A stretch of DNA of 64,000 bases from Thermoanaerobaculia bacterium (lineage in GTDB: Bacteria; Acidobacteriota; Thermoanaerobaculia; Multivoradales; JAHEKO01), in contig CAWAET010000022.1 of NCBI GenBank assembly GCA_963781065.1, positions 29,055-93,054 of the forward strand, given 5' to 3'. A program made the position numbers and the translations under genes. The notes below the pieces were generated by a model. It made no database searches and was not told the origin of the DNA. It saw only the letters and a list, made by a program, of their open reading frames with translations. Shown piece by piece: positions 8,075 to 47,065 of the stretch. How positions within the stretch are numbered: position 1 is the stretch's first letter; the number at the start of each line of letters is the position of its first letter.

Positions 8075-9792
8075 GCTTCGCCCGCCGCCACGGCGATCAG
8101 CTCGCGGGCGTGGGAGAGAGAGAGCTTCGTGACGTCGCGGCCGGCGAGCATGCGGGCAATCTCGCGCACCCGTGGATCCCCCGTCAGGGTCTCGACGCCG
8201 GTCTCGGTGCGCCCCCCGGCCTGCCGCTTGATCACCCGCAGGTGGCGCGCCCCGTGGCTGGCGACCTGCGGCAGATGGGTGACGACCAGGATCTGGCCGC
8301 CACGCGATAGCCGCTGTAGCTTGCTGCCCAGCGCCGCCGCCTCGGCGCCGCCGATGCCGGCGTCGACCTCGTCGAAGATCAGCGTCGCCGGCAGCGCCTC
8401 GCCGCTGCCTCGAACCGCCAGCTGCAGCGCCAGATAGATGCGCGAAAGCTCACCGCCGGAGGCGACCCGCGCCAGCGGTCCGGCCGGCTCGCCCGGGTTG
8501 GCGGCCAGCTGGAAGACGACCCGGTCGTAGCCCTCCGCCGCGAACTCCACCGGCTGGCCGGCCACCCGGAGCGGGCTGCCCTCCCGCCGCTGGCGCTCGA
8601 GCCGCACCGAGAACCGCGCCCTGGCCATCGCCAGCTCAGCGAGCTCGCGGTGCACCCGGCCGGCCAGCCCGCGGCCCCAGGCGGCGCGCTGCCTGGACAG
8701 CTCGGCTGCCGCGGCGGCGTACTCGTCGAGCGCCGCCGCGACCCCCTCCTCCAGCTCGGCGCGGCCCTCGGCGTCGGCGTCGAGCGTCGCCGCCTCGGCC
8801 GCCAGCCGGGCCCGCTCGGCCAGCACCCCGGCGCTGTCGCCGCCGTACTTGCGCAGCAGGGGCTCGATCGCTGACAGCCGCTGCTCGACCCGGTCCAGCC
8901 GGCGTGGATCCACCTCGACGCCGCGCAGCCGCTCACGCACCGCCACGGCCAGCTCCTGCAGCCGGATCCGCGCCTCCTCGAGCTCGTCGAGCCAGGCCGG
9001 CACCTCGGGCAGCCACTCCGACACCTCCTCCAGCTGCCGCTGGGCCCGCGCCACGCGCACCACGGCCGCGTCCTCGTCCTCCAGCAGCAGGCTCTCGGCC
9101 GCGGTCAGGGCGCCGCCGATCGCTTCGGCGTGCCGCAGCACGGCGCGCTCGCGGCGCAACTCGTCCTCCTCGCCGGCGGCCAGCTCGACCGCGTCGATCT
9201 CGCCGACCTGGAAGCGCAGCAGATCGAGCCGCTCACGGCGCTGGCGCTCGTCGCCGCTGACCCGCTCGAGCCGGTCGGCCAGATCGCGGTAGGCGCGGTA
9301 GGAAGCCGCCACGCCCCGGGTGAGCTTCGCCGCCTTCTCGCCGCCGCTGCGATCCAGCCAGGCGCGCTGAACCTCGGCCGAAAGCAGGCCGAGCTCCTCG
9401 CGCTGGGTGTGGATGCGCAGCAGGCCGGCGGCGAGGTCCCCCAAAAGCCTCAGGGTGACCGGCTGGTCGTTGACGAAGACCCGGTTGGGCGCCTCGCGGT
9501 GAACCTCGCGGCGCACCACCAGCTGGTCCTCGCCGGCATCGAGCCCGGCCGCGGCGAGCAGCCGCCGCTCGGGCTCGCCCAACGGCGCGAAGACGCCGGC
9601 CACCGACAGGACGTCGGCGCCGGCACGGATCGCTTCGCCGCTGGCGCGCGCCCCGGCCAGCAGCGCCAGCGAGTCGACGACGATCGACTTGCCGGCGCCG
9701 GTCTCGCCGGTGAGCACGTTGAGGCCGGGGCCGAACTCGACCTCGACGTCGGCCAGCACGGCGAGGTTTCGGACGTGAAGCGTGCGCAGCAT
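8071..9792 (-). CDS. recN: DNA repair protein RecN
   Basis: N-terminal Walker A (LTGETGAGKSIVVDSL), a long coiled-coil middle, and C-terminal ASGGELSRIYLAL plus LIFDEVDAGIGG. Confidence 0.9.
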   Translation of the reverse strand: MLRTLHVRNLAVLADVEVEFGPGLNVLTGETGAGKSIVVDSLALLAGARASGEAIRAGADVLSVAGVFAPLGEPERRLLAAAGLDAGEDQLVVRREVHREAPNRVFVNDQPVTLRLLGDLAAGLLRIHTQREELGLLSAEVQRAWLDRSGGEKAAKLTRGVAASYRAYRDLADRLERVSGDERQRRERLDLLRFQVGEIDAVELAAGEEDELRRERAVLRHAEAIGGALTAAESLLLEDEDAAVVRVARAQRQLEEVSEWLPEVPAWLDELEEARIRLQELAVAVRERLRGVEVDPRRLDRVEQRLSAIEPLLRKYGGDSAGVLAERARLAAEAATLDADAEGRAELEEGVAAALDEYAAAAAELSRQRAAWGRGLAGRVHRELAELAMARARFSVRLERQRREGSPLRVAGQPVEFAAEGYDRVVFQLAANPGEPAGPLARVASGGELSRIYLALQLAVRGSGEALPATLIFDEVDAGIGGAEAAALGSKLQRLSRGGQILVVTHLPQVASHGARHLRVIKRQAGGRTETGVETLTGDPRVREIARMLAGRDVTKLSLSHARELIAVAAGEA

Positions 9793-11078: not shown

Positions 11079-11321
11079 TCAGCCGGCCTTGTAGCTACGC
11101 CCGGCGCCGTTCTCGATCGCCAGGTCCGGCGGCTGCTGCAGACCCCGCTCGACCAGCTCGCCGACCCGGGAAGCGTCGTTGAGATAGTGCTCTTCGCCGG
11201 TCCTGAGGTTGCGCACATAGACCCGTACGACGTCGGGCCGATCGTCGACCTCTCGCGGCTCCTTCCAGCAACGGACGAGGAAGGAGTCGCTCGTCTGTCG
11301 CGCTTGACGCCTTCCATTCAT
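11079..11321 (-). CDS. small hypothetical protein (80 aa)
   Basis: GGAGGG lies 7 nt upstream of the ATG. Composition is non-shadow. The FLVRCWKEPRE...VRVYVRNLRTGEEHYLND pattern recalls uncharacterised small proteins often found beside large SARP/LuxR-AAA regulators. Confidence 0.6.
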   Translation of the reverse strand: MNGRRQARQTSDSFLVRCWKEPREVDDRPDVVRVYVRNLRTGEEHYLNDASRVGELVERGLQQPPDLAIENGAGRSYKAG

Positions 11322-11419
11322 TCGCAGCCCTCCGAGGTCTTTTCCGCCGGGACTTCCGCGTCCACAAGGACTGCGCCGCCCCGGCGATACTCGCCAACGT
11401 CGCCAAAGTAGCCCAGAGG

Positions 11420-11447
11420 CGTCAGGAGATCGTCAGGAGGCGTCGAA
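11420..11447 (-). promoter_or_regulatory. heptamer direct-repeat box (SARP-box-like), plus-strand CGTCAGG-agat-CGTCAGG-agg-CGTCGAA
   Basis: Repeat periods are 11 and 10 nt. On the minus strand the proximal CCTGACG lies 9 nt upstream of TACTTT (11405-11410). The box sits in the divergent region between the small ORF and the SARP-type regulator. The same box recurs at 44898-44925. Confidence 0.45.
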
Positions 11448-11531
11448 CCGCGCCGCCGCGCTGCTACAATCCCGCCATCGGAAGGGCGCTTGGGGCTGGT
11501 CTGGCGCTGGCGCTTGGTCAGTGGGGCTCAC

Positions 11532-13838
11532 ATGAGTGACATCGAGATCCGTCTGCTGGGCGGTTTCGACATTCGCTGCGGCGAGGCGGCAGTGCGACGT
11601 TTCGAGTCGCAGAAAGCGCGTGGGCTGCTCGCCTATCTGGCGCTGCACCGCAACCAGGCGCTGAGCCGGGAGCACGTCTCCACCCTGCTGTGGTGCGACA
11701 AGGACGAGACCGCTGCCCGGCGCAACCTGCGCCAGGTGCTCTACAGCCTGCGCACCGTCTTCACCGAGGCCGGGCTGAGCGCCGAGCTGCTGCTCGGCGC
11801 CGCCAAGGAGATCAAGCTCCACCCCGACATCGACGTGCGGGTGGACGTGGTCGACTTCGAAGAGGCCATCCGGCGCGGACTCGACGGCACCGAGCCCGAT
11901 TCGCAACAGCTCGGCCGAGCCGCCCGGCTGTACATCGGCGACTTCTTGAGCGGTTTCTTCGTCCGCGACTGCCCGCAGTTCGAGGAGTGGCTGATCACCA
12001 CGCAGGAGCGGCTGCGCGAGGCGGCCCTGGCCGCCTTTCACACCCTGGTCGGCGCCTGTCTCAGACGCGGCGAGTCGCGCATGGGCATCCACTACGCCCG
12101 CCGCCTGCTGGCGATCGACCCGCTGTCGGAGCGGGCGCACCGCCAGTTGATGCGCCTGTACGCCCTGTCGAGCCGCCGCACCCGGGCCCTGGCCCAGTTC
12201 GAGGAGCTGCGCAACCTGCTCAACCAGGAGCTCGGCGTCGAGCCGCTGGCCGAGACCACCGAGCTCTACCAGGCGATCCTGCTCGAGGAGGTGCCCGAGG
12301 AGTCGGCCGGCGAAGAGCCGATGGGCCCCCTGATCCCGCTCGCCGGGCGGAGCGAAGAGCTGGCCGAGCTGCAGGGCTCGTGGCAGCAGGTCCTCGAGCA
12401 CGGCGCCCGGCTGGTGCTGATCAGCGGCGAGACCGGCGTCGGCAAGACCCGGCTGGTCAAGACCTGCGTCGACCGCGCCAGCTCGCAGCGCCGCACCCGG
12501 GTGCTGCGCGGCCGCGCCTACGAGGCCGCCCCGGCGCTGGCCTACGGCCCCTGGGCCGAGATCGTCACGACGGTCTTCGCCGACCTGATGCCGGACGAAG
12601 AGCTCGATCCCGAGCAGATCGACATGCGGTCGATCTCCGACCTGGCCCTGATGGCGCCGCAGCTGGCGGCGCTCGACCCCGAGCTGCTGGGCGGGCCGGC
12701 GCGGCGCGAAGACGGCGATGCGACTCGGCTGCCCGAGTCGCTGGGGCTGCTGCTGGCGGCCCTCACCGAGGGGCAGGACGGCGGCCGGACGCCGATGATC
12801 CTCATGCTGAGCGACCTGCACTGGGCCGCCGCGGAAAGCCTGGACCTGCTCCAGCTGCTGGCGCCGCAGCTCGCCGGACTCCCCGTCCTGGTGCTCGCCA
12901 CCGTCGACCCCACGGTGCCCGGGCTGGCGCATCCGCTCCTCACCGGCGGCGCGACCGACATCGGTCTGCCGGTCGACCGTCTGGCCCTCGGCCGCCTGCC
13001 GACCGAGGCCCTGGCCGAGATCGCCGACGCCCTGGTGCCCTCGGAGGACAGTCCCTGGCTGGCCGAGCTGTTGGAAGCCTGGTCCGGCGGCCTGCCGCTG
13101 GCGGTGACCGAGCTGATCAACTACCTGTGGGACGAGGACGTGCTGATCGCCCGCCAGCCCGGAGGCTGGACCGTGGACCGCGAGCGCGCCGAGACCTGCG
13201 AGCCGCCGGCAAGCCTCCACGACCTGATCGTCAGCCGATTCCGTGGCCTGCCGGCCTCGGCCCGGCGGCTGCTGGCACTGGCCGGTGTCATCGGGCAGCG
13301 CTTCGACGTCGACCTGCTGCGGGTCGCCGGCGACGAGAACCTCGCCGTCGTCGAGGCCTGCATCGAACTGATGCTGCAGCGCTGGCTGATCCGCCAGTTC
13401 CCCCGCACCTGGACCCACACCGGCCGCGAGCGCGACATCGTGCTGTTCGCCCGCGGCGCCCGCCGCGGCATCTTCGAGTTCGCGCACGAATCGATCCGCA
13501 GCGCCATCGTCGCCGACGTCAACCCGCTACGGCGGCAGGTGATGCACCGCGACACAGCGGCCGCTCTGGCCCAGATCTATGCCGAGGACTCCGAGTCGGT
13601 CTGTGAGGCCACCGCCCACCACCTGATCGAGGGCGGCGAGATCGACCGCGCGCGGGACTGCCTGATGATGGCGGCCGAGCGGGCGCGGCTGGCCGGTGCC
13701 ACTACCACCGAGAGCCGCTATCTCGAGCGCTGGCGGACATCGCTGGGCCGCAACAAGGGCTCCCGCGCGGCACCCGGCGAGCGCGAGCACATCGAGCAGC
13801 GGCTGAGCGAGATCGCCGCCCTCCAGCCGCCGGGCTAG
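11532..13838 (+). CDS. SARP/AfsR-family regulator (winged-helix + BTAD + AAA ATPase + helical repeats)
   Basis: MSDIEIRLLGGFDI...QKARGLLAYLALH (OmpR-type DNA-binding domain), a BTAD region (FEEWL...ELYQAIL) and a P-loop (ISGETGVGKTRLV). ATG at 11532. Confidence 0.85.
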   Translation: MSDIEIRLLGGFDIRCGEAAVRRFESQKARGLLAYLALHRNQALSREHVSTLLWCDKDETAARRNLRQVLYSLRTVFTEAGLSAELLLGAAKEIKLHPDIDVRVDVVDFEEAIRRGLDGTEPDSQQLGRAARLYIGDFLSGFFVRDCPQFEEWLITTQERLREAALAAFHTLVGACLRRGESRMGIHYARRLLAIDPLSERAHRQLMRLYALSSRRTRALAQFEELRNLLNQELGVEPLAETTELYQAILLEEVPEESAGEEPMGPLIPLAGRSEELAELQGSWQQVLEHGARLVLISGETGVGKTRLVKTCVDRASSQRRTRVLRGRAYEAAPALAYGPWAEIVTTVFADLMPDEELDPEQIDMRSISDLALMAPQLAALDPELLGGPARREDGDATRLPESLGLLLAALTEGQDGGRTPMILMLSDLHWAAAESLDLLQLLAPQLAGLPVLVLATVDPTVPGLAHPLLTGGATDIGLPVDRLALGRLPTEALAEIADALVPSEDSPWLAELLEAWSGGLPLAVTELINYLWDEDVLIARQPGGWTVDRERAETCEPPASLHDLIVSRFRGLPASARRLLALAGVIGQRFDVDLLRVAGDENLAVVEACIELMLQRWLIRQFPRTWTHTGRERDIVLFARGARRGIFEFAHESIRSAIVADVNPLRRQVMHRDTAAALAQIYAEDSESVCEATAHHLIEGGEIDRARDCLMMAAERARLAGATTTESRYLERWRTSLGRNKGSRAAPGEREHIEQRLSEIAALQPPG

Positions 13839-13856: not shown

Positions 13857-14582
13857 CTATCCGACGTAGAGATCGAAGAATCGCCGGATCAGCAGCGCCG
13901 CCTCGGCCGACGGCGACAGCAGGCGCGAGACCTCATCCGCCGTGGTCCGCTCGGCAAGATAGCCGTCGCGGTACCACAGCAGCCGCGCCGCCATGTGATC
14001 GACGGTCATCTCGCTGTGAAACTGGGTGCTGTAGATCGGCCGGCCCGGAGCGCGCAGCGCCTGGAACGGGCAACGTTCCGAGGCCGCCAGCTCGACCAGC
14101 CCCGGCGGCAGCCGCTGCACCCGATCGTGGTGGCCCAGCTGGACCGCGAAGCGCGCCGGCAGGCCGGCACACAGCGGATCCTGCCGGCCGGCGGCGGTCA
14201 GCCGGATCTCGAACGTGCCCACCTCGCCGGTCGACGGATCGGTGACCACCCGGCCGCCCATCGCGTCGACCAGCGCGTGGTGGCCGTAGCAGGAGGCAAA
14301 CAGCGGCCGGCGCTCGTCCACCAGGCGCAGCAGCGTCTCGCGCAGCGGTTGGCTGAAGGGATAGGCCGCCGTGACGGTGTGGGCGCCGGCGCCGCCGACC
14401 ATCACGGCGTCGAACCGGCTCACTTTTCGCCAGTCGAGGCGCGGCTCCTCGACCAGGTTGTGACAGGTCAGCCGCTCGGGCCGCAGCTCGGCTGCCTCGA
14501 GAAAGCACAGCCGCTCCTGTTCCTCGGCGCGCGGCTCGTCGCGCACCTGCAGCAGCAGCACCCGCGGCTCGGCCCGGCCCAT
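13857..14582 (-). CDS. class I glutamine amidotransferase-like protein
   Basis: Motifs FASCYGHHAL and YSTQFHSE (Cys-His type GATase1) in the 241-aa C-terminal part of ORF 13857..14981. ATG at 14580-14582. Confidence 0.7.
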   Translation of the reverse strand: MGRAEPRVLLLQVRDEPRAEEQERLCFLEAAELRPERLTCHNLVEEPRLDWRKVSRFDAVMVGGAGAHTVTAAYPFSQPLRETLLRLVDERRPLFASCYGHHALVDAMGGRVVTDPSTGEVGTFEIRLTAAGRQDPLCAGLPARFAVQLGHHDRVQRLPPGLVELAASERCPFQALRAPGRPIYSTQFHSEMTVDHMAARLLWYRDGYLAERTTADEVSRLLSPSAEAALLIRRFFDLYVG

Positions 14583-14608
14583 GCCGTGAGCGCCCACCGC
14601 CGTGACGC

Positions 14609-15508
14609 TCAGCCCAGGCCGAGGAAGCCGCGAACCACGTGCCGGGCCACTTCCGGGTTCTCGCGCAGCCGGCGGATCGAGTAGGCGTACCAGTCTCGCC
14701 CGTAGGGCACGTAGACCCGCAGCCGGTGCCCCTCGGCCAGCAGGATGCGGCGCAGCTCCTCGTCGACTCCGAGCAGCATCTGGAACTCGTAGCGGTCCCG
14801 GGGCAGCCGGTGGCGGTCGATCAGCTCGCGGGCGGCGCAGACCAGGTACTCGTCGTGGGTGGCAATGCCGACGTAGACCCCCTGGCGGATCAGCTTGTCG
14901 AGCGCCGCCACGAAGTTGCGCCGCACGGTCTCGTAGCCCTTCCAGGCGACGGTCCGCGGCTCGATGTAGATCCCCTTGCACAGCCTTGCGTTGGCGCCGT
15001 CGGCCGGCAGCGCGGCGATGTCGTCCAGGGTGCGGCGCATGTAGGCCTGGAAGACCACCCCCAGGTTGCCGTGCCGCGGCTGCAGCTCGTGGTAGATCCG
15101 CAGCGTGGCGTCGGTTGCCGTGCGGTCCTCCATGTCGAGGCGCAGGAAGTTGCCGTGGCGGGCTGCCACGGCGGCGATGCGGTCGACGTTGTCGCGGCAG
15201 AACGACTCGTCGATCTCGAGGCCGACCATGGTCAGCTTGATCGAGACGTTGGAGTCGAGCCCACGGCGCTCGATCTCGTCGAACAGCCGCAAGTACTCCT
15301 CTACCGCCGCCTCGGCCCGGCGGCGGTCGGTGACCTCCTCGCCCAGCAGGTCGAGGGTGGCCATGGCGCCGGTCTCGTTGAGGCCGGCGATGACCTCGAA
15401 CGCCCGCTCGCGGCTCTCGCCGGCGACGTAGCGGCGCGCCACTTTGCCGACCAAGAACCTGGGAACCAGCGGCAGGCCGACGACGACCAAGCGGCCGAAC
15501 AGGCTCAT
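14609..15508 (-). CDS. proline dehydrogenase family protein
   Basis: Motifs SIKLTMVGL, FLRLDMED, QAYMRRT, RLCKGIY, YEFQMLLGV and VYVPYG. ATG at 15506-15508. Confidence 0.8.
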   Translation of the reverse strand: MSLFGRLVVVGLPLVPRFLVGKVARRYVAGESRERAFEVIAGLNETGAMATLDLLGEEVTDRRRAEAAVEEYLRLFDEIERRGLDSNVSIKLTMVGLEIDESFCRDNVDRIAAVAARHGNFLRLDMEDRTATDATLRIYHELQPRHGNLGVVFQAYMRRTLDDIAALPADGANARLCKGIYIEPRTVAWKGYETVRRNFVAALDKLIRQGVYVGIATHDEYLVCAARELIDRHRLPRDRYEFQMLLGVDEELRRILLAEGHRLRVYVPYGRDWYAYSIRRLRENPEVARHVVRGFLGLG

Positions 15509-28335: not shown

Positions 28336-28692
28336 ATGGAAGATGTGATCGTCCTCAACAAGTCGTCCGAGCACTCGCTCCAGGAGTTGGCGCAAAGAGC
28401 CGCGGAACCCCTGGCCGCGGCCGGCGCGGAATGCGCGGTGGCGTTCGGCTCGTGGGCTACGGGCTCGGCCGACGGCTATTCGGACCTGGACCTGGCCGTG
28501 GTCCTGAAGACCGACCTCCCACGCCTCGAGCGCGGCCGGCTGCTCGCCGGGCTCATCGAGGCGCTGCCGATCGCGGTGGACCTGATGGTCTACACGCCCG
28601 AGGAGTTCAAGCGCGGGCTCGCAGCGAAGATCGGGGTCTTCGACGCGATCGCCCGGGAAGGCGTGACGATCTATGCACGATCCGCAGCGTGA
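28336..28692 (+). CDS. nucleotidyltransferase-domain protein (MNT-type antitoxin)
   Basis: Motif GSWATGSADGYSDLDLAVVL (GSxxxGxxxxxSDxDL). 20-nt overlap with the HEPN gene. Confidence 0.85.
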   Translation: MEDVIVLNKSSEHSLQELAQRAAEPLAAAGAECAVAFGSWATGSADGYSDLDLAVVLKTDLPRLERGRLLAGLIEALPIAVDLMVYTPEEFKRGLAAKIGVFDAIAREGVTIYARSAA

Positions 28693-29092
28693 GCGCCGAC
28701 GCTGGCTGGCGGCGGCGAGCGAGGACCTGGCCTTCGCCCGGCATGCGGTCGACGGCGGCTTCTACGCACCCGCCTGCTTTCACGCTCAGCAGGCGGCGGA
28801 GAAGGCGGTCAAGGCGGTCCATTACGGCCGCGGCTCGCGTGCCGTTATCGGGCACAACGTGCGCGCCCTGATCAGCACGCTCGACCCGCCCGCCGAAGCC
28901 CTCCACCGCCAGCTCGATGCGGCTCGCGAGCTGGATCTGTTCTACGTGCCGACCCGATACCCGAACGGCCTCGACGAGGGAACTCCCGGTGATGCCTTCT
29001 CGGCCGATCAGGCCGAGCGAGCGGTGAAGCTCGCCGGGGGGATCATCGAGGCCGCCGAGAGCGCGATCTCGGGCGCGTCGTCGGCCAGCTGA
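28673..29092 (+). CDS. HEPN-domain protein (toxin partner of MNT)
   Basis: Motifs ASEDLAFARHAV, FHAQQAAEKAVKAV, GHNVRALI and YVPTRYPN. Confidence 0.85.
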   Translation: MHDPQRERRRWLAAASEDLAFARHAVDGGFYAPACFHAQQAAEKAVKAVHYGRGSRAVIGHNVRALISTLDPPAEALHRQLDAARELDLFYVPTRYPNGLDEGTPGDAFSADQAERAVKLAGGIIEAAESAISGASSAS

Positions 29093-38751: not shown

Positions 38752-39768
38752 TCAGGAGCGTTCGAGGTCGGCCAGAACGGCCTCCCGCACCGCCGGCAGG
38801 CCGGCCATCCCGGGCGGATAGACAAGCCGGCGCACCGGCACCTCCCGCACCAGCCGGGCAAAGGCCTCCAGCCGTGCCGCCTGCAGGCCCGCCGCCTCGA
38901 CGATGTAGGGCGAGAACGAGCGGCGCAGCAGCTCGACGACCGCCTGCCGCGCGGGGACCGGAGAGATCCGGACGCCCCCGCCGGCCGTCTCGCCATCCAG
39001 CCGCTCGGGCAGATACAGACGGCCGAGCGGCGCCGCGGCGGCGTGGAAGTCGCCGAAGCCGCCCTCCCCGACCGGAACCCAGTGCTTGCCGAGCTGGACG
39101 CGAGACGCCTCGCGGAGCCCCGGATCGGTGACGAAGTGCGCCAGCCCGTCCGGCCGCATGCGCATCTGGGGGTAGCCGGAGCGGCCGACGATCCCTGCGG
39201 CGGGCGCCTCGATCGCCAGCAGGTCGTCGCAGAGCAGCGGCGCGCCACCGGCCATCATCGCCGCCGCCAGGGCGGTCTTGCCGCCCCGGTGGCCGGCCAT
39301 GAAGGCCACCACCCGGCCGGCGACAACCACCGCCGAGGCGTGCAGGGCGCAGATCGCCAACCGCTCCAGCCAGTAGGCCAGGACCGGCCCCAGCAGGCGG
39401 ACCTCGACCAGCCGCGCGCCGGCCGCCCGACGCAGGTGACAATCGATGCGATCGCCGCCCAGGTAGAAGTCCAGCGCGTCGCCAAAGCGCAGCAGCTCTC
39501 CCTCGTCCAGCCGGTAAAGCCGCGACAGGCTGTCGCCGGCCGGATCGAGCAGCGGGCTCTCGTAGACCGGGTCGCCCAGCTGCGCCACGTACGGAGGCCG
39601 GTCCGCGACCGAGAAGGTCAGATCCACGTCCCCCCGGCCCGGCGACAGCCGGCTGGCAAAGGCGAACGAGCTGGCCAGGGTGAGGCCGAACAGGCGGTGG
39701 CTGCGCCGGCCCGAGATCGCGCCGGAGATCGCGCCCCTCGGGGTGCCCCCGTCCGGCGCCTCCGTCAT
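38752..39768 (-). CDS. HPr-kinase-C-terminal-domain-like serine kinase (HprK-related)
   Basis: LHASAVVVAGRVVAFMAGHRGGKTALAAAMMAGGAPLLCDD is a P-loop-like GxxGGKT in an HprK-type context. Confidence 0.65.
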   Translation of the reverse strand: MTEAPDGGTPRGAISGAISGRRSHRLFGLTLASSFAFASRLSPGRGDVDLTFSVADRPPYVAQLGDPVYESPLLDPAGDSLSRLYRLDEGELLRFGDALDFYLGGDRIDCHLRRAAGARLVEVRLLGPVLAYWLERLAICALHASAVVVAGRVVAFMAGHRGGKTALAAAMMAGGAPLLCDDLLAIEAPAAGIVGRSGYPQMRMRPDGLAHFVTDPGLREASRVQLGKHWVPVGEGGFGDFHAAAAPLGRLYLPERLDGETAGGGVRISPVPARQAVVELLRRSFSPYIVEAAGLQAARLEAFARLVREVPVRRLVYPPGMAGLPAVREAVLADLERS

Positions 39769-39815: not shown

Positions 39816-40829
39816 TCAGACGGCGGCGGCTTCCAACAGCCGGTGCCCGGCCAGCGTCTCGGCGAAGGAACCAAGGTCCCGCCGCAGGGTGTCGAGCGGC
39901 GCCTCGTACCGCTCGGCGAGGAAAGCCGCTCCGGCGTCGACGCTGCCCCAGGCCGCCAGGGCCCGCCACATGTCCGCGCCAACCCCCTCGAGGGCGAAGA
40001 CCCGATCCGTCGCCAGCGAGTAGAGCCAGATGCGGTCGTCGAGGGCGGCCGTGGCCACCTCATCGGCGACCCGCCAGGCCGGGGCCTCCACCGGCACCGG
40101 CGGCGGCCCGAGCTCGGCCCGCGCCTTGAGACAGCTGTGCGGCGGCAGCAGCCGCCAGCCCCGCTCGAGAGCCCCGCTGGCGGGGTTCCAGATCGGGCGG
40201 TCGGGCTCGCTCCAGGCAAAGCCGACCAGGTCCGGCAGACCCAACCAGTAGCGGCCGCCGCCGAGGTGGTCGCGACCGCTGGCCAGCCAGCGTGGATAGT
40301 CGTCGCCGTACAGCTCGCGCGCGTGGTCGGCCAGATCGGCCGCCGCCACACAGCGCTCCACCCGCGGCTCGGTGGCGACGATCGCCGCGCGCAGGTCCGG
40401 GTGCGAGTAGAGGTGCGCGAACACGACCCGCGGGCTGTCGCAGCCGGCCAGGGCGGCGCGGAAGCGCGAGCCGCTCAGCGCACAGTCGTCCACCAGCAAA
40501 AGCGGCCGATCGCCGGCCGGCTCGCCCGACAGCCGTGCCGCGCGCAGATCGAGCATGTACGCCAGCATGCCCAGCACGATCAGCCCGCCACGCGGGATGC
40601 CGCGGGCGGCGAACGCTCTCAGATCGCCGCGCGAGTGGCCCTCGAGCAGCTTGGCCGCCAGCGCCTCGCACAGGCGCTCGGCCCGGCGGTAGTCGACATA
40701 GCGGAGGGTGTGGCGCAGGCGCCGGACGACTCCCGGCAGGGTGCCCAGCCGCGCGGCATCGACCGATGTCAGCCCCGGCGGGGCCTGCAGGCCGGTCGGC
40801 AGCCGGTCCGCCTCATCAGTCCTCGTCAT
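39816..40829 (-). CDS. fusion protein: phosphoribosyltransferase-like domain + C-terminal PqqD-family (RRE-type) domain
   Basis: RGGLIVLGMLAYML and PLLLVDDCALSGSRF are a PRPP-type motif. The C-terminal ALEGVGADMWRALAAWGSVDAGAAFLAERYEAPLDTLRRDLGSFAETLAGHRLL is PqqD-like. The ATG at 40827-40829 overlaps the upstream stop (ATGA). Confidence 0.6.
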   Translation of the reverse strand: MTRTDEADRLPTGLQAPPGLTSVDAARLGTLPGVVRRLRHTLRYVDYRRAERLCEALAAKLLEGHSRGDLRAFAARGIPRGGLIVLGMLAYMLDLRAARLSGEPAGDRPLLLVDDCALSGSRFRAALAGCDSPRVVFAHLYSHPDLRAAIVATEPRVERCVAAADLADHARELYGDDYPRWLASGRDHLGGGRYWLGLPDLVGFAWSEPDRPIWNPASGALERGWRLLPPHSCLKARAELGPPPVPVEAPAWRVADEVATAALDDRIWLYSLATDRVFALEGVGADMWRALAAWGSVDAGAAFLAERYEAPLDTLRRDLGSFAETLAGHRLLEAAAV

Positions 40830-41977
40830 CGGCCGAGCTGGAAGATGACGGCGCCGACGTCGTCGCCCTGGAGCTCCCACTCGGTGGACTCCCGCTTGCG
40901 GTTGGGCCCGAACGAGTAGACGAAGATGACGCGGCTGCCGCGGCGGCGCGAGCACTCGTCACGGATCCAGTAGGGCGAGTTCCAGGGGTCGAGGAAGAAC
41001 TCCGCCCGCTCCGTCGGCATGCCCTGGCCGGTGAGCGCGGCGAAGGCGCCCTCGTACAGGTAGTCGGTGTCGTACTTCTCAACGAACGAGTAGACCCGCT
41101 TGTGCACTCCGCACCGGGTCACCGCCTTGCCGCGGTTGTCACGCGCCATGGTCAGGAAGTCGTCCTTGAGGGCGGCGGTCTCGGTAACCACCGCGGCCAG
41201 GATCTCCTCGCCGGTCCCGCGCTGCCCGCGCGAGTAGGCAGCCGCCGCCAGGCCCAGCGCGGCGACGATCGCCACCACCAGCGCCAGCCTGCCGAGACGC
41301 CGGGGCCCGGTCTCGGGCCGGCCGGCAAAGGTCTCCGCCGCGACCAGCGAGGCGAACAGGAATCCCAGCCCGACCATCAGCTCGATCACCTCGCCGGTGA
41401 ACTTGAGCGGATACTGCTGGTAGACGACCCAGGTGACCAGGAAGGCTGGCGCCAGTTGCCACGGCGACGCCACGACGGCGAGCCGATCCAACTGCCGGCG
41501 GACCGGCGCCGCCAGCGCCAGCAGCGGCAGCAACACGCCGTAGCCCAGGATGACGCCCTTCAGAGCCAGCTTGCGCAGCGAGGTGTCGACCACGTTGTGG
41601 ATGTTCAACTCCTGCTGGAAGTTCTCCTGCAGGAAGTAGACCGGCGGCCGGTAGCCCAGCACGCGCTGGCCCCACGAGATCTCCTCGCCGGCGACAAAGA
41701 CGCAGAACAGCGAGACGCCAGCCAGGAACCAGGGCAGCGCCCCGCTCGCCCGCCGCTGGCGGACCGCGGCGACGGCGAAGATCACCGCGGCGACGGCAAA
41801 GGCCCAGACCGTGGCCCATTCGAGGAACTCGTCCTCCTGGACCGCCTGGTAGTAGGCGTCCCGGCTCGACTCGTGAAGCGCCAGGGCCACGAGCAGCGGC
41901 AGCACCGCCAGCAGGTTGGCCACCAGCGGCCAGACGAAGCCCTGGGAGCTTCGGGCCGTGTTGAGCGTCGCGTTCAT
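40826..41977 (-). CDS. polytopic membrane protein with a GspG-C-terminal-like soluble domain
   Basis: Several hydrophobic helices occupy the first 250 aa or so. The C-terminal DPWNSPYWIRD...VYSFGPNRKRES resembles the pseudopilin DPWGxPY...GPDG motif. Confidence 0.65.
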   Translation of the reverse strand: MNATLNTARSSQGFVWPLVANLLAVLPLLVALALHESSRDAYYQAVQEDEFLEWATVWAFAVAAVIFAVAAVRQRRASGALPWFLAGVSLFCVFVAGEEISWGQRVLGYRPPVYFLQENFQQELNIHNVVDTSLRKLALKGVILGYGVLLPLLALAAPVRRQLDRLAVVASPWQLAPAFLVTWVVYQQYPLKFTGEVIELMVGLGFLFASLVAAETFAGRPETGPRRLGRLALVVAIVAALGLAAAAYSRGQRGTGEEILAAVVTETAALKDDFLTMARDNRGKAVTRCGVHKRVYSFVEKYDTDYLYEGAFAALTGQGMPTERAEFFLDPWNSPYWIRDECSRRRGSRVIFVYSFGPNRKRESTEWELQGDDVGAVIFQLGR

Positions 41978-42062: not shown

Positions 42063-44834
42063 CTAGTGACTATCGCTGTCCGAATCGCTGTCCGACGCGC
42101 TGTCGGAGTCGGAATCGCTGTCCGACGCGCTGTCGGAGTCGGAGTCACCCGAGTCCGAGTCCCCGTCGTCGGTCACGATCTCGCCGTTGATGTGGCACGC
42201 CAGGCCGCCGCCGTCGGAGTCGCCATCCGAGTCGGAATCCGAGTCACTATCGCTGTCCGAGTCCGAATCGCTGTCCGAGTCCGAGTCGTCGCTGTCGGAA
42301 TCGCCGTCATCGTCGCCCAGTGGGCAGAGCTCGCCGCCCTCGCGGCTGGTCCCCTCGACGACCTCGAAGTCGCCGCTCACGAGGCCCGGCCCGATTGGCT
42401 GCGAGCAACTCGTGTGGATCTTGGTGTTGAGCTGGCCGTTGACGTAGATGCTGATCTCGGTCCCCAGGGTGCCCTTCTTGTCCATCCCGGAGAAGGAGAA
42501 CGGCGCTCCGGGCTGGACGAAGTCGTTGAAGACCACCTTGCCGTCCTTCTTCTGCTTGATCAGGACCTGGGCGTTCATCGTCAGCCCGTTGTACTGCAGA
42601 GTAAGTTCCTGGACCTTGCCCTCGCACCCGCCGCAGTCGCCGCCGGGGTCGTTCCCGGAGTCGCTGTCGGAGTCATCGGAGCCCGAATCACTGTCGGAAT
42701 CGTCATCGAAGTCGATCAGGCAGATCGGGGCCACCCCGGTGATGACGTCATCGGAGTCGGAGTCGGAGTCGGAGTCGCTGTCATCACCCGAATCCGAGTC
42801 ACTGTCGTCGCCCGAATCGGAGTCGCTGTCGTCGCCCGAATCCGAGTCGCTGTCGTCGCCCGAGTCCGAGTCGCTGTCATCGCCCGAGTCCGAGTCGCTG
42901 TCATCGCCCGAGTCCGAGTCGCTGTCATCGCCCGAATCCGAGTCGCTGTCGTCGCCCGAGTCGGAGTCCGAGTCGACGTCACAGGGACAGATGTACGGGA
43001 AGTCGAAGGTCAGGACGTCACCCGAGCCCACGAGGTCCACCTCGAAGCCCGGCACTATCCGGTCGGGCCCCCCAAGGCCGTCGCCACCGTCGTTGGTGAC
43101 GATCAGCGCCGTTACCGGCAGGGTGATGGCCAGGCCCTCGAGAGGGCCGCCCGGCTCGGAGTTCGCCGGCGTGCACTCGACCAGGTACTCACCAGGCTCC
43201 AGCCCTTCGAACAGGTACATGCCGCTGTCGTCGGTCGTCGTGGTGTCGAGCAGCTCCGTCTGATCCGCGTTCCAAAGCTTGACCTCGACTCCGGGGATGC
43301 CCGGCTCGCCGGGATCCTCTTCGCCGTCGCCGTCGCGGTCCAGCCAGACGAAGTTGCCGACGTTGTACTCGGGATCCGGCACCACCTCGGCGTCGAAGCG
43401 GAAGAGGTTCAGGTTCTCCAAGTCGAGTCCGCTGACCCTGACCTCGTAGAGACCCGGTGGCAGCTCCGCCACCTGGGCGTCGGAGGCCACGATGCGGGTC
43501 GTGGGCACGCCGGGATCGGTGGGATCGAACAGAGTGATCTCACACAGCGCCGAGCCTTGCGAGATGCAGAAGACCTCCCACTCGCGGTTGCCGGAGGGAT
43601 TCACACCGGGGTCATCGCCCGGCGCGCCGTTGCTGGCCAGGACCTCGTCCAGCCCGCCGGTCTGGCCGTCGTAGCGCTCGCGCAGGATGACCTCGTAGTA
43701 GATCGACGGCTGACGCAGGAAGGGGTTGTTCGAGGTCGCGGGTCGGTCATCAGGCGGGTTGCCGGTGGAGGGCCCCAGGCCGCCGGCCACACCCTCCCAC
43801 TCCGCGCGCCGCACGATGCAGAAATCGCCGGGCGCCGGAATCGGATCGCCGAGCTCCTGGGCGCAGGCAGTCACGCAACCCGCTTCGCCAACCTCGAGCT
43901 CGGGCTCGGTGCAGCGGAACCCCCAGGGGGGCAAATCGCCCAGGTCCCCCACTATCGAGGGTGTGTTGGGGTCATCCGTGTCGTTGTTGGTGCCGAGCGC
44001 GTCGCCGCGATCCAGATCGCCGTCCCAGATCTCGAGCTGGTTGATCTGACCGGAGCCCGGGGGCGCCTGCACGTCGAGGAAGAAGCTGAACGTGCCGTCG
44101 TAGGTCGTGCCCTCAGCGAGGCAGGCCGGGAAGTTGCTCAGGTCGGACAAGCAGGCCGGGTAGATGATCGCCAGCTCCTTCAGGTCGGGCATCGCGGCAT
44201 TGAAGCCGAAGGGCTGCTGCGTCACCTGGATCGAAACGTCGGTCTCGAAGGTCTGGACCTTGAAGACGCTGCGGATCGTCTCCGACGAACTCGACGGCAC
44301 CGACTCCAGTGCCGAGCGCAGCACGTAGGCGTACTCGCTCTCGCACGGGTTCTGACCGGGGTTCCCCACGCACGCCGCGGGGTCATTCGTCACCGCGAAC
44401 GACGTCCACGCGTTGTCGTCCAGCTCCTCGGTGAATTCGTTGATGACCAGCAGTGGAGCCACGTCGTCCGGGTTGCCGTCTTGTGGAGCGACGTCCGGGT
44501 ACAGCCGAAAGATCAGCCGCGGATCGGGCTTGATCGCCGCCTGGGTGTTGATGTCCCAGTGGCCGACGGCCCGGCTGGTCTCGCCGTCGAAGATCCGCAG
44601 CGTGAAGCCGGCGATCAGCGGCGAGCTGATCTGGATATCGACTCCCTGATCGGCAAAGGTCGCCAGGCCCTGGTCGGCTCGTGTGTCGGTGATCGCGAGA
44701 AACCGCCCGTCGTTGACCGCGCAAGACGGCAGACAGTTGGTGTCCATCTGCGCCTGCGCCGCGGCCACAGTGGGCAGCGTGAGCACCAGGACCACCAGCG
44801 ACAGTCCAATGCAGGTGTGCTTGTTCAGTCTCAT
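42063..44834 (-). CDS. secreted Ser-Asp-repeat protein with an SdrD-B/Cna-B-like domain
   Basis: Signal peptide (CIGLSLVVLVLTLPTVAAAQA). GNFVWLDRDGDGEEDPGEPGIPGVEVKLWN...DSGMYLFEGLEPGEYLV is an SdrD B-like fold motif. There are two DS-rich repeat tracts. GGAGG lies 5 nt upstream of the ATG. Confidence 0.85.
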   Translation of the reverse strand: MRLNKHTCIGLSLVVLVLTLPTVAAAQAQMDTNCLPSCAVNDGRFLAITDTRADQGLATFADQGVDIQISSPLIAGFTLRIFDGETSRAVGHWDINTQAAIKPDPRLIFRLYPDVAPQDGNPDDVAPLLVINEFTEELDDNAWTSFAVTNDPAACVGNPGQNPCESEYAYVLRSALESVPSSSSETIRSVFKVQTFETDVSIQVTQQPFGFNAAMPDLKELAIIYPACLSDLSNFPACLAEGTTYDGTFSFFLDVQAPPGSGQINQLEIWDGDLDRGDALGTNNDTDDPNTPSIVGDLGDLPPWGFRCTEPELEVGEAGCVTACAQELGDPIPAPGDFCIVRRAEWEGVAGGLGPSTGNPPDDRPATSNNPFLRQPSIYYEVILRERYDGQTGGLDEVLASNGAPGDDPGVNPSGNREWEVFCISQGSALCEITLFDPTDPGVPTTRIVASDAQVAELPPGLYEVRVSGLDLENLNLFRFDAEVVPDPEYNVGNFVWLDRDGDGEEDPGEPGIPGVEVKLWNADQTELLDTTTTDDSGMYLFEGLEPGEYLVECTPANSEPGGPLEGLAITLPVTALIVTNDGGDGLGGPDRIVPGFEVDLVGSGDVLTFDFPYICPCDVDSDSDSGDDSDSDSGDDSDSDSGDDSDSDSGDDSDSDSGDDSDSDSGDDSDSDSGDDSDSDSGDDSDSDSDSDSDDVITGVAPICLIDFDDDSDSDSGSDDSDSDSGNDPGGDCGGCEGKVQELTLQYNGLTMNAQVLIKQKKDGKVVFNDFVQPGAPFSFSGMDKKGTLGTEISIYVNGQLNTKIHTSCSQPIGPGLVSGDFEVVEGTSREGGELCPLGDDDGDSDSDDSDSDSDSDSDSDSDSDSDSDGDSDGGGLACHINGEIVTDDGDSDSGDSDSDSASDSDSDSDSASDSDSDSDSH
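42081..42140. repeat. perfect 30-nt tandem duplication inside the C-terminal SD tract
   Basis: GAATCGCTGTCCGACGCGCTGTCGGAGTCG x2 by direct reading. Encodes DSDSASDSDS twice. Confidence 0.85.
42747..42975. repeat. about 8 tandem 24-nt units encoding DSDSDSGD
   Basis: GTCGCTGTC(G/A)TCGCCCGA(A/G)TCCGA periodicity by direct reading. The repeat is in frame in the SD-repeat gene. Confidence 0.85.
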
Positions 44835-44897
44835 CGTGTCCTCCGTTCGCCCGACCCGTTCATCGTCCGGGATCTTGCGTGAATTGTGCTCACCAAC

Positions 44898-44925
44898 CGT
44901 CAGGAAAACGTCAGGTGACGTATCG
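44898..44925 (-). promoter_or_regulatory. second copy of the heptamer direct-repeat box, plus-strand CGTCAGG-aaaa-CGTCAGG-tga-CGTATCG
   Basis: Same heptamer and same 11/10-nt spacing as 11420-11447. On the minus strand the proximal CCTGACG lies 9 nt upstream of CACAAT (44883-44888), and that hexamer ends 48 nt upstream of the SD-repeat gene ATG. Confidence 0.45.
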
Positions 44926-44947: not shown

Positions 44948-44983
44948 GAAACGGAAAACGCCGGCGTCGCCCGGCGCCGGCGT
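44948..44983 (-). terminator. intrinsic terminator downstream of the precursor-like ORF
   Basis: The minus strand reads ACGCCGGCG-ccgggcga-CGCCGGCGT followed by TTTCCGTTTC. Perfect 9-bp stem. Confidence 0.55.
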
Positions 44984-45012: not shown

Positions 45013-45186
45013 TCAGGTGGCGAACGACGCGCCGAAGCCGTCCCCGGGCACCTGGGTGGAGAGCGTGCGGGTGAGCTCCTTCAAGCTCCCGTACTCCTGC
45101 AGCTCGGGCGGCTGGTAGGGATGTCCGCGCCGGCTCTCGGCCGATGGCCTCTTCGCCTTGGTTGGCTCAGGTCGCTTGTCGCTCAT
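45013..45186 (-). CDS. candidate lasso-peptide precursor (57 aa), in frame with the upstream cyclase-like ORF
   Basis: MSDKRPEPTKAKRPSAESRRGHPYQPPELQEYGSLKELTR|TLSTQVPGDGFGASFAT. It matches the leader motif YxxPxLx3Gx5Tx exactly, and Asp is at core position 9. GAGGAGG lies 11 nt upstream of the ATG. A terminator follows the stop. Confidence 0.45.
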   Translation of the reverse strand: MSDKRPEPTKAKRPSAESRRGHPYQPPELQEYGSLKELTRTLSTQVPGDGFGASFAT

Positions 45187-47065
45187 CTCTTGGTCAACCT
45201 CCTCGGGCAAACCCCGCAGCCAGGATTCCAGGCAGAGAAAAGATAACAGTCCATAGGCGGTACCCGTTCCATCCCAGAATCTATCGAAGGCGGCTGCAAC
45301 GGAGCCAGTAATGAACTGTACAGCTTCGGCGTGGGGCTTGTCCAGCATCCGCTCGACCGCCGTCCTCTCCTCGTGCCTCAGACGGCCGAGAAGCACGTCC
45401 TGGATGTGGCTCTTGCTCACTCGCCGCCGAATCCGCTCGGGCATCCGGCCAGCCATCGCCAGGCGCAGGATGCGCCGGTCGCCGCCGTGCCAGCTGCGCA
45501 ACCGGCGGGGCGCGTGGAGCAGGAGATCCACCACTCGGCGGTCGAGGAACGGCAGGCGCCACTCCACCCCGGCGTGCGCCGCGGTGACGTCGATCGCGCT
45601 GTGCCGAGCCAGATCGAACGGCCGCCCGATGGAGCGCGCCGCCCAGCGGCCGGCGGGCCCCAGGCCGGCGGCGAGAGCTCGCCGCGGCAGGGCCGGCAAC
45701 CGGCCGCGCCACGACCCTCGACCGGCGCGCCGCACCCATTCCCGATCGCCGGCGGGCCGCAACCGCCGCAAGGCCTCCTGCAGCCCGGCCGGAACCAGCG
45801 GCCAGAGAAAGGCTCGCGCCAGGAGCTCGGCGGTAGCCGTCCCGGTCGTCGAGCGGAAGCGGGGCAGCTCGGCCGCCAGCTCGCGCCAGCCGACCAGCCG
45901 CAGCGCCCGCGGGTCGTAGTAGAAGGCGTGGCCCAGCACCTGGTTGGCGCCTTCGCCGGCCAGCACAACCCGGCAGCCGTCACCCGCGGCGGCGTCGAAA
46001 AGCGCGGCGGTGTGGCTGCGCAGCAGGTAGACCTCGGGCTCGTCCAGCGGCTGCTCGTCGGCCGCCAGCCGACCGAGGGTAAGCGGCAGCTCCGCCGCCG
46101 GGATCCGTCGCGACGCCACGCCCTCGAGTCGATCGTCGAGCTCGTCGAAATAGTCGCTCTCGTCCGCCGTCGGCGTGCCTTCGAAGGTGAGACAGTAGAG
46201 GCGCAGCCGTTCCGCCGCGACGGCCTCGTGGGCGGTGCTGGCGACGGCGGCCGAGTCGACGCCGCCACCGGCCAGCAGACCCACCGGCTTCGGGCTGCGC
46301 AACCGGCTGCTGACCGCCAGATCGAACACCCGGCGGAAGCCCTCGGCCCACTCCTCGTCGCTGGTCGAAGGAGCCCGAGAAGGTCGACCCCAGCTCCCAC
46401 CACAGCCGCTGCCTGAGGCCGGTCTCGTCGGCGGTCAGGAAGTGCCCCGGCGCGACGCGCCGCACTCCTTCGTAGACAGTGCCCTCGATCCAGTGGCGGT
46501 AGGAATCGTGGAGAAAGGCCTCGACCAGCGGCCGGTTGAGCGGCGGCCGCTCGGCCAGCGCCGCCAGCACCGCGCCGATCGTGCTGCCGAAGGCCAGCGT
46601 CGCTCCGCGCCGCGCCCAGTAGAGCTGGCGCATGCCCATCGCGTCGCGGGCCAGCAGCAGCCGGCGCCGAGCGCCGTCCCACAGGGCGAAGGCGAAGTCG
46701 CCGAGGGCCTGGTCGCACACCCGTGGCCCGAACCGTTGATAGCCGGCCAGCAGGAGCCGGGCGTCGGAGGCGTCCTCGCCGAGCTCCGGCCGGCCTTGCC
46801 GCAGGCCGGCCAGCAGCTCGTCCCGGTTGTCGATCCGCGCGTCCGCGACGAGCCGTAGCCGGCCGCTCGCGTCGGCGATCGGCTGTTCCTCGGCGACCTC
46901 CTCGGGCGTCGTCCAGAACCGGCCGTGCACCATGCCGACGGCGCCGCCGACCCAACTCGCCATGCCGTCCGGCGAGCGGTAGGCGAGCTGGCCCGCCATC
47001 CGATCCAGCCGCGTCGGGTCGATCGGCGCACCGTCCAGGTTGAGCAAGCCGGCGAAACAGCTCAA
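45013..47065 (-). pseudogene. asparagine-synthetase-like (lasso-cyclase-type) gene, frame broken near 46360, no stop codon before the precursor-like tail
   Basis: The N-terminal GATase-like domain (GDFAFALWDGARRRLLLARDAMGMRQLYW) is in the frame of 45980..47170. The synthetase domain (LLAGGGVDSAAV ... LESWLRGL) is in the frame of 45013..46329. The junction reads GAC CAG C GAC GAG. Probable TTG start at 47065 ([12 protein letters not shown]). Confidence 0.65.

Follow-up and report, generated by a model that had tools for sequence, protein, structure and literature searches.

What connects two promoters that lie 33 kb apart in the genome of an acidobacterium, and which regulator would act on them? 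The stretch of DNA analysed here (the window) comprises 64,000 nt of a Thermoanaerobaculia bacterium (assembly GCA_963781065.1, contig CAWAET010000022.1, positions 29,055 to 93,054) with a G+C content of 71%; the host is a Thermoanaerobaculia-type acidobacterium, represented by a metagenome-assembled genome (MAG) of the Acidobacteriota, and not an actinomycete. An initial annotation had pointed out that one tandem heptamer precedes both an 80-aa open reading frame (ORF), called small80 below, which lies divergently beside the gene of a regulator of the SARP (Streptomyces antibiotic regulatory protein) type, and a distant gene for a secreted protein with Ser-Asp (SD) repeats, and had proposed that the regulator joins the two loci in a small regulon. 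Comparison with related loci makes the cis-element itself, apart from its assignment to a regulator, essentially certain. Going one step further on sequence grounds, it is likely that each site is an activator-dependent sigma-70-type promoter core without a usable -35 element, served by the divergent SARP-LAL regulator. Features of the window are collected in Table 1.

Two copies of one operator in the window

On the plus strand the two sites read CGTCAGGagatCGTCAGG (11420-11437) and CGTCAGGaaaaCGTCAGG (44898-44915). The pattern CGTCAGG-n4-CGTCAGG, with its 14 specified bases, has exactly two exact occurrences in 64 kb, at 11420 and 44898 and with the same spacing, as first reported, and none in 100 dinucleotide-preserving shuffles; the single heptamer shows no enrichment (14 observed, 18 expected). 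A separate repeat search of the window also recovers both of these 11-nt-period repeats. Read on the minus strand, the sites share the layout CCTGACG-n4-CCTGACG-n9-hexamer, the hexamer being TACTTT at the first site and CACAAT at the second, and downstream of each lies a gene with a strong ribosome-binding site (RBS), all of which agrees with the initial annotation. When the window was scored with a position weight matrix built solely from the sites of other loci, with the window sites left out, box 1 reached 38.0 bits and box 2 reached 37.7 bits, while the next position in the window scored 3.9 and the best of 50 shuffles 15.7. Given this gap to the next position, the window holds exactly two sites and no weaker ones.

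One element of the first description did not survive. A third repeat with a 10-nt period (CGTCGAA at the first site, CGTATCG at the second) had been counted as part of the array, yet no information content is seen, over 101 non-redundant sites (see below), at the 24 positions preceding the distal heptamer on its upstream side, which rules the third repeat out as a conserved feature. As separate observations, one related locus (L066) has three consecutive heptamers (CCTGACGattcCCTGACGatctCCTGACA), and in L018/L076, L042, L068 and L069 two boxes stand 57-127 bp apart, which suggests occasional higher-order operator arrangements.

Conservation of the box in related loci

Related loci, designated by L numbers, were pooled with the window to a total of 657 kb. 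The pool contains 80 loci (L018-L097) with regulators 38-70% identical to that of the window, which came from a metagenome scan using an alignment of 30 regulator homologues, and the loci gathered earlier. Boxes were counted as tandem heptamers with 1 mismatch or fewer. The pool holds 109 such sites (101 non-redundant), compared with 0.85 in mononucleotide shuffles, and the same heptamer pair with any other spacer between 0 and 19 nt occurs at 0-5 sites each, against 109 at spacer 4. Similarity between the sites is confined to the box and the -10 element. For target assignment, window proteins were compared by tblastn, and a homologue had to lie within 600 bp downstream of a box in the orientation that the box would transcribe. 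By this measure 53 boxes stand upstream of homologues of the 80-aa ORF, 35 upstream of the SD N-terminal domain and 3 upstream of lasso-type genes. With 91 of 109 boxes placed before recognisable target genes, the tandem heptamers are thus not scattered over these loci without a link to promoters. Tandem arrangements of small80 and SD-type genes have one box per gene, for example in L026, L029, L030, L031 and L043.

In three orthologous loci, L009-L011 (regulator identity 89, 81 and 77%), gene order around the regulator is unchanged. Across the aligned intergenic regions, CGTCAGGA(g/a)ATCGTCAGGA is kept amid diverged flanks, and so are CGCTGCTACAAT and the motif CAAnnTAG, which is the minus-strand TAnnTT of the small ORF's -10 element. 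In L012 (72%) the box reads CGTCAGGagatCGTCAGC. In L013 (68%) and L019 (70%) the gene divergent from the regulator is not the small ORF but one for an orthologue of the SD-repeat protein, with CGTCAGGagatCGTCAGG lying between the two, an arrangement that directly links regulator, box and SD-type gene. Comparative footprinting, which had been put forward as a check on the element, therefore finds the box kept in orthologous regions while its flanks diverge.

We then counted boxes from the side of the regulator, taking the 84 regulator genes whose upstream sequence extends for 300 bp or more. A divergent box lies within 600 bp of 64 of the 84, down to 38% identity (range 38-89%). Of the boxes upstream of regulator genes, 96 are directed away from the regulator gene and 0 towards it. 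Loci on the SD side (L014-L017, L100/L101) were gathered independently, by a search with the N-terminal domain of the SD protein in which the regulator was not used. The same box precedes SD orthologues and paralogues in these loci (Table 1), in keeping with the proposal that loci 33 kb apart in the window belong to one regulon. No box at 2 mismatches or fewer was found in the 13.6 kb of L098 and L099 (the latter from Myxococcales), which carry 29%-identical SD homologues and serve as negative controls, being unrelated contexts with no SARP or lasso genes.

Anatomy of the promoters

The 101 non-redundant sites give the consensus logo T-CCTGACG-aTcT-CCTGACG-n9-nAnacT. Its heptamer columns are partly fixed by the way in which the sites were collected, and the T's of the spacer and the -10 positions lie outside the search pattern. 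These T's and the logo as a whole define a repeat unit of 11 bp, made up of 8 conserved bases, (T)CCTGACG, and 3 free ones. At the fixed 9-nt offset, 91 of the 101 sites have A as the second base of the hexamer, and 88 have T as the sixth. A promoter scan of both regions found no consensus sigma-70 -35/-10 promoter at either site and no -35 consensus. If the hexamer is set at -12 to -7, the 22-bp box would cover -40 to -19, and transcription would be predicted to start at G 11398 for the 80-aa ORF and at A 44876 for the SD gene.

The regulator's own promoter shares the first intergenic region. The -10 element proposed for it just beyond the boxes, TACAAT at 11465-11470, is present; because a TG precedes it at 11462-11463 it qualifies as an extended -10, and CGCTGCTACAAT is invariant in four orthologous regions. 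The distance from the box to the regulator's -10 changes between clades, from 19-27 nt and beyond. At the second site, an intrinsic terminator separates the preceding gene from box 2, so that the SD gene needs a promoter of its own.

The regulator gene

Domain searches support the description of the divergent gene at 11532 as a SARP/BTAD-AAA regulator. A BTAD domain directly follows the winged helix-turn-helix (wHTH) region (PF03704, E = 2e-24, 87 bits, residues 104-250, full model covered), and AAA_16 is matched at residues 270-454 (Pfam, E = 1.4e-21). By phmmer, residues 26-92 align without gaps to the DNA-binding domain of EmbR; the EmbR match as a whole (E = 8e-8) pairs query residues 26-252 with EmbR 32-257 and so spans wHTH and BTAD, and a match to AfsR (E = 1e-5) pairs residues 26-251 with AfsR 46-264. 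PF00486 is already annotated in many orthologues of the regulator. Residues 249-722 resemble the ATPase region of a TOMM kinase/cyclase fusion (4.4e-28). The regulator has no Pfam match to GerE/LuxR HTH, NB-ARC or TPR, and it scores 31.6 bits with the NCBIfam AfsR model, whose cut-off is 1430. Judged by these domain assignments, the protein fits the SARP-LAL subclass and not the AfsR-type large SARPs.

Within the regulator, conservation is highest at FESQK[AV]R[AG]L and R[RH]NLRQ; these stretches are in the wHTH, and alignment with EmbR and AfsR puts them in the region of the recognition helix. Such strong conservation of the wHTH fits a nearly invariant DNA target. The named homologues are from MAGs of Thermoanaerobaculia or other Acidobacteriota, including one 76%-identical fragment. 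A scan of GTDB representative genomes with the regulator gave nothing closer than 36% identity, the matches being proteobacterial or other, which indicates a lineage without a close representative genome.

Two observations concern the 5' leader of the regulator gene. An imperfect direct repeat, GGCGCTTGGGGCTGGTC / GGCGCTGGCGCTTGGTC, lies at 11485-11519 (+), and the leader of L012, measured from the -10 to the start codon, exceeds that of other orthologues by about 290 nt.

Proposed mechanism and alternative explanations

In the mechanism that we propose, a dimer of the regulator, its protomers side by side and head to tail, would occupy both repeats, with its centre near -29.5. The bound dimer would replace the -35 contact ('sigma adaptation', as for AfsR) and recruit RNA polymerase. 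Promoter 1 would then drive the 80-aa gene beside the regulator, and promoter 2, 33 kb off, an operon for the SD-repeat protein and the 383-aa, PqqD-domain and 338-aa proteins. The ATPase and C-terminal region would presumably gate this activity on a nucleotide or ligand. Sequence comparison shows the element with its strict geometry, conservation and orientation, its link to these target genes and to this regulator family, and the domains of the regulator; physical binding of the regulator to the boxes, activation rather than repression, the start sites and a signal are what we infer from it. In favour of the assignment, the SARP-LAL gene is the only transcription-factor gene that consistently adjoins the boxes, over regulator identities of 38-89%.

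The boxes could be real and yet be bound by another transcription factor that recognises direct repeats, such as an OmpR/PhoB-type response regulator whose gene lies elsewhere, the SARP gene being just a conserved neighbour. Direct repeats that overlap the -35 and have a period of 10-11 bp are bound by winged-helix response regulators too, and the heptamer does not covary with the SARP recognition helix. We nevertheless regard this reading as very unlikely: no other regulator gene stands consistently beside the boxes, and no OmpR-type regulator was seen there. The window encodes a single histidine kinase, and this belongs to the HisKA_3 type, whose partners are NarL-type regulators. Within the SARP the wHTH is conserved best, in line with an operator that is invariant. 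A Crp/Fnr-type neighbour was also considered as the binder and set aside, since no more than 9 loci have one and the sites of Crp-type regulators are palindromic. A different possibility keeps the SARP-like protein as the binder but makes it mainly a repressor, with the box as an autoregulatory operator of its own divergent promoter. Box 1 does sit between two divergent -10 elements, and some clades have the box 19 nt from the regulator's -10, where a -35 would be. For box 2 and many other boxes, however, there is nothing on the other side that could be regulated. Towards the target, moreover, the -10 follows at a constant 9 nt in about 90% of sites, whereas the regulator-side distance varies. 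The target promoters also lack a -35 and have a non-consensus -10, which is typical of activated promoters (PMC10936776), and we consider repression very unlikely as the main role. That the repeat pairs are not regulatory at all, being due to chance, to a piece of some mobile or repetitive element or to RNA structure, might be suggested by their two copies only in the window and by short incidental repeats in the flanks. This idea is effectively refuted by the chance expectation of 0 copies in the window, by the 109 strict-spacer sites with a co-conserved -10, by similarity that stops at box and -10, and by an orientation that always follows the downstream gene; a search for Rfam families gave no match anywhere in the window.

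Several observations nonetheless weigh against activation by the divergent SARP-LAL regulator as we propose it. Twenty of the 84 homologues have no upstream box at 1 mismatch or fewer, although in several of these 20 there are nCTGACG variants with 2 mismatches, or else the box stands on the downstream side of the gene. Because L018-L097 were found via the regulator, the adjacency of box and regulator is partly a matter of ascertainment, although the presence of the box itself is not. The recognition-helix variants RHALRQ and RSSLRQ are still paired with the same box; no covariation between recognition helix and box was seen among the loci, and since the heptamer does not vary there is none to exploit. 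Pfam Trans_reg_C reaches 21.5 bits in the window protein, below its cut-off of 26.2. Beside the regulators of two 48% relatives, the boxes of L020 (at about 3867) and L021 (at about 641) have no -10-like hexamer in place (AATCCG and GCCGGA), and these boxes may be decayed or differently used. The SARP-like spacing initially claimed stands only in part: the 11-bp repeat period is borne out by the 109 sites with a 4-nt spacer, but the gap between heptamer and -10 hexamer is 9 nt rather than the textbook 8, or 6 bp, as at afsS, if counted in 11-bp units.

Relation to known systems

The closest parallel for the promoters is the AfsR/afsS system of Streptomyces coelicolor. The product of afsS has 63 aa, and both systems have as their conserved main target the gene of a very small protein next to the regulator (60-80 aa here). 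AfsR is likewise a large SARP with N-terminal wHTH and BTAD and a C-terminal ATPase module. SARP targets are described as direct repeats 11 or 22 bp apart, the 3' repeat lying 8 bp from the -10 (PMC10936776). The afs box consists of two 11-bp repeats from -40 to -19, centred at -29.5 and overlapping the -35 (PMC10936776); within each repeat, contacts of the AfsR protomer cover the first 8 bp and leave the last 3 free, and the -10 (CACTGT) and -35 of afsS are both poor (PMC10936776). The boxes described here share the two 11-bp repeats of 8 + 3 bases and, by the placement predicted above, the stretch from -40 to -19 before a suboptimal -10. The systems differ in that AfsR has NB-ARC and TPR where the present regulator has an AAA_16 / LAL-type half, and similarity between the two is low (E = 1e-5, SARP domain). 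The operator reads (T)CCTGACG here, the gene of the small target is transcribed divergently from that of the regulator, and the host belongs to the Thermoanaerobaculia. The small protein is not known to resemble AfsS.

In domain plan, the regulator corresponds to the SARP-LAL proteins PimR, FilR and SanG of Streptomyces, in which a SARP domain is joined to a LAL/guanylate-cyclase-type ATP-binding half without a LuxR HTH (PMC10972967). Heptameric direct repeats with 4-nt spacers are also common to both, unlike the phylum and the placement of two heptamers in a position that would replace the -35. The target of PimR is the gene of a PAS-LuxR regulator, whereas the targets here are a small protein and secreted-protein or lasso-associated genes. 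The small SARPs ActII-ORF4, DnrI and RedD share wHTH and BTAD and heptamer repeats with an 11-bp period near the -35, the 3' repeat about 8 bp from the -10. They differ in having no ATPase module, often three repeats, and a setting in actinomycete polyketide clusters; their heptamers are of the TCGAG type, unlike CCTGACG. EmbR of Mycobacterium tuberculosis (PDB 2FEZ) is the best sequence match with a solved structure over wHTH and BTAD, but its C-terminal FHA domain and its control by Ser/Thr kinase phosphorylation set it apart, the present regulator having no equivalent domain.

Target genes

The most conserved target, small80, encodes a cytoplasmic protein that matches no Pfam or NCBIfam family, and a word-based homologue search yields close relatives only. 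Its AlphaFold2 (AF2) model (pLDDT 74) has three strands and one helix, and a Foldseek comparison with PDB folds gave no match (best E-value 0.37). A possible origin as a truncated PqqD/RRE domain found no support in a profile-profile comparison (probability 2.8%). Its segment VRVYVRNLRTGEEHYLND...VGELVERGL shows a local likeness to one part of PqqD/RRE domains, the beta-hairpin with the first helix (l.l.tGe.f.Ln..g..iW.ll).

The second target, the SD-repeat protein, has a signal peptide and an N-terminal domain of some 480 aa that is all-beta, together with SdrD_B and DUF7467 (Pfam) and Ser-Asp repeats. For the AF2 model of the N-terminal domain (pLDDT 71), comparison with the PDB brought up no meaningful match, the TM-scores being 0.18 or less. 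The 383-aa gene that follows is probably co-transcribed with the SD gene. The true start of the PqqD-domain gene is probably near 40805, orthologues having 329-333 aa. The label 'kinase' initially given to the 338-aa protein is weak, as it corresponds to a match to HprK-related kinase A at E = 0.006 and 15.7 bits.

Lasso peptide context

Directly upstream of the terminator and box 2 lies a gene for a lasso-type precursor. The leader of the precursor is a perfect match to the motif YxxPxLxxxGxxxxxTx, with Thr at -2, and the core has an Asp/Glu at position 7-9 (Asp9), as lasso precursors do. The core, TLSTQVPGD..., begins with Thr, which is unusual at core position 1, and a 9-residue ring would close at Asp9. 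The NCBIfam model lasso_leader_L3 gives 20.1 against a cut-off of 19 for the precursor orthologue in L017. In the window and in L017 the precursor is in frame with the cyclase ORF with no intervening stop; in L014 it is a separate 57-aa gene after a TAG stop. The lasso-cyclase-like gene itself falls in two frames with a break at about 46364 (tblastn), where the window has a 1-nt insertion (TTCGACCAGC) relative to TTCG-CCAGC in L017 and L014, and this frameshift is either a sequencing error or the mark of a pseudogene. The NCBIfam lasso cyclase model matches the L017 orthologue at 3.4e-90 and 303 bits, under the cut-off of 525.

A neighbouring gene for a DeoC-type aldolase, 47112-48193 (-), lies in three frames with breaks near 47740 and 47400 and is intact with 360 aa in L017. 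There are thus three frameshifts in about 2 kb of one operon, and neighbouring genes that were compared with orthologues look intact; the cluster could stem from local assembly error or from decay of the operon.

A tblastn search of the window with the B2 protein of L011 found no lasso B2 protease gene. In L011 itself (77%), the B2 protease gene directly follows the small ORF at 8270-8713 (-) (NCBIfam 78 bits, cut-off 33), a position that would put a core lasso enzyme under the box promoter. In L037/L038, L041, L077 and L094 the small ORF is followed by a lasso-cyclase-like gene, a precursor with the YxxPxLxxxGxxxxxTx motif and a PqqD-domain gene, and in about 10 related loci the precursor comes after the cyclase. 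Since the small ORF is so often followed by lasso genes, the regulator looks like a cluster-situated activator of a lasso-associated gene set. In the window, about 33 kb of housekeeping and miscellaneous genes split this set. The leader motif, the Asn-synthase-like cyclase, the PqqD-domain protein and the B2 protease of L011 are all as in split B1/B2 lasso clusters; unlike in those, small80 and the SD/DUF7467 protein are not known lasso components, the cyclase is frameshifted and the core starts with Thr.

The region between the two box loci contains a nucleotidyltransferase/HEPN toxin-antitoxin-type pair at 28336-29092 (+), a GH25 lysozyme gene at 25897-26676 and a PAS-HisKA_3 kinase gene at 29875-31023, and this region is absent from the shorter arrangement in L016. 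Next to the regulator, the longest ORF of the GATase gene at 13857-14981 (-) has 374 aa, about 130 aa beyond what is called in orthologues (234-248 aa); this N-terminal excess is probably spurious, with translation beginning near 14600.

Table 1. Predicted genes and promoter elements at the two box loci, with boxes before SD-type genes in related loci
Feature	Location	Strand	Remarks
SARP-LAL-type regulator, 768 aa: OmpR-type wHTH, BTAD, AAA_16 ATPase, helical C-terminal region	11532..13838	+	
Extended -10 TGcTACAAT, regulator's own promoter	11462..11470	+	CGCTGCTACAAT invariant in four orthologous regions
Box 1, 22-bp operator, two 11-bp direct repeats TCCTGACGatc TCCTGACGcct	11417..11438	-	exact match; kept in L009-L013
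Box 1 core heptamers	11437-11431, 11426-11420	-	
-10 hexamer TACTTT, 80-aa ORF promoter	11405..11410	-	orthologues keep C-TA-nn-TT-G there
80-aa ORF (small80), most conserved target, cytoplasmic	11079..11321	-	ATG 11321, RBS GGAGGG
338-aa protein, last gene of putative operon	38752..39768	-	syntenic in L016, L017
Protein with C-terminal PqqD (RRE-like) domain	39816..40955	-	Pfam PqqD 1.8e-9; weak match to lasso PqqD
383-aa protein, no family match	40826..41977	-	85-nt gap to SD gene; syntenic in L016, L017, L100, L101
Secreted SD-repeat protein, 923 aa, second target	42063..44834	-	ATG 44834, RBS GGAGGA
-10 hexamer CACAAT, SD-gene promoter	44883..44888	-	n9 as at site 1; same offset in L017 (CACAAT) and L014 (GATGAT)
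Box 2, 22-bp operator ACCTGACGttt TCCTGACGgtt	44895..44916	-	exact match; kept before orthologues in L017, L014/L015
Box 2 core heptamers	44915-44909, 44904-44898	-	
Intrinsic terminator ending upstream cyclase/precursor transcript	44958..44983	-	9-bp GC stem, then T run
Lasso-type precursor, 57 aa, leader YQPPELQEYGSLKELTR, core TLSTQVPGDGFGASFAT	45013..45186	-	directly upstream of terminator and box 2
Lasso-cyclase-like asparagine synthase gene	45190..47065	-	frameshifted; no box here
Box before 87% SD orthologue	L017		CCTGACGttctCCTGACG-n9-CACAAT; same sample as L009
Box before 60% SD orthologue	L014 / L015		CCTGACAttctCCTGACG-n9-GATGAT
Box before DUF7467 paralogue at operon end	L016 / L017		CCTGACGttttGCTGACG-n9-TAGGAT
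Box before same DUF7467 paralogue	L100 / L101		CCTGACGctttACTGACG-n9-TACTAT; two other metagenomes

Discussion

SARPs have been described as exclusively, or mainly or nearly exclusively, actinomycete (PMC7040171, PMC10936776), and a literature search found no description of the present SARP system. Its proposed mechanism and its architecture are those of SARP systems already known, whereas the phylum, the operator and its near-invariance over 38-89% regulator identity, and the content of the regulon are new. A wider picture can be drawn, although as a whole it is doubtful: a large SARP-LAL regulon in soil and sediment Thermoanaerobaculia/Acidobacteriota, with an 8-bp operator that hardly varies and, as its first-line target, a novel-fold, AfsS-like effector of 60-80 aa, in which lasso production would be coupled to secretion of DUF7467/SD proteins and the ATPase might sense the lasso peptide or a metabolite, giving autoinduction.

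SARPs are the textbook switches of antibiotic gene clusters, and a sizeable SARP-LAL family in uncultured Acidobacteriota appears to keep the AfsR-type geometry. Its operator, (T)CCTGACG-n3-(T)CCTGACG-n9-[-10], is sharp enough for regulons to be predicted from sequence, and the regulon predicted in this way is tied to lasso-peptide genes and to two protein families of unknown function. It may offer a handle on silent clusters for peptides that are made by the ribosome and modified after translation (RiPPs) in organisms that cannot be cultured, either by overexpression of the regulator or with the box as a beacon for genome mining. The finding also supports the idea that activation by 'sigma adaptation' is older and wider than the Actinobacteria.

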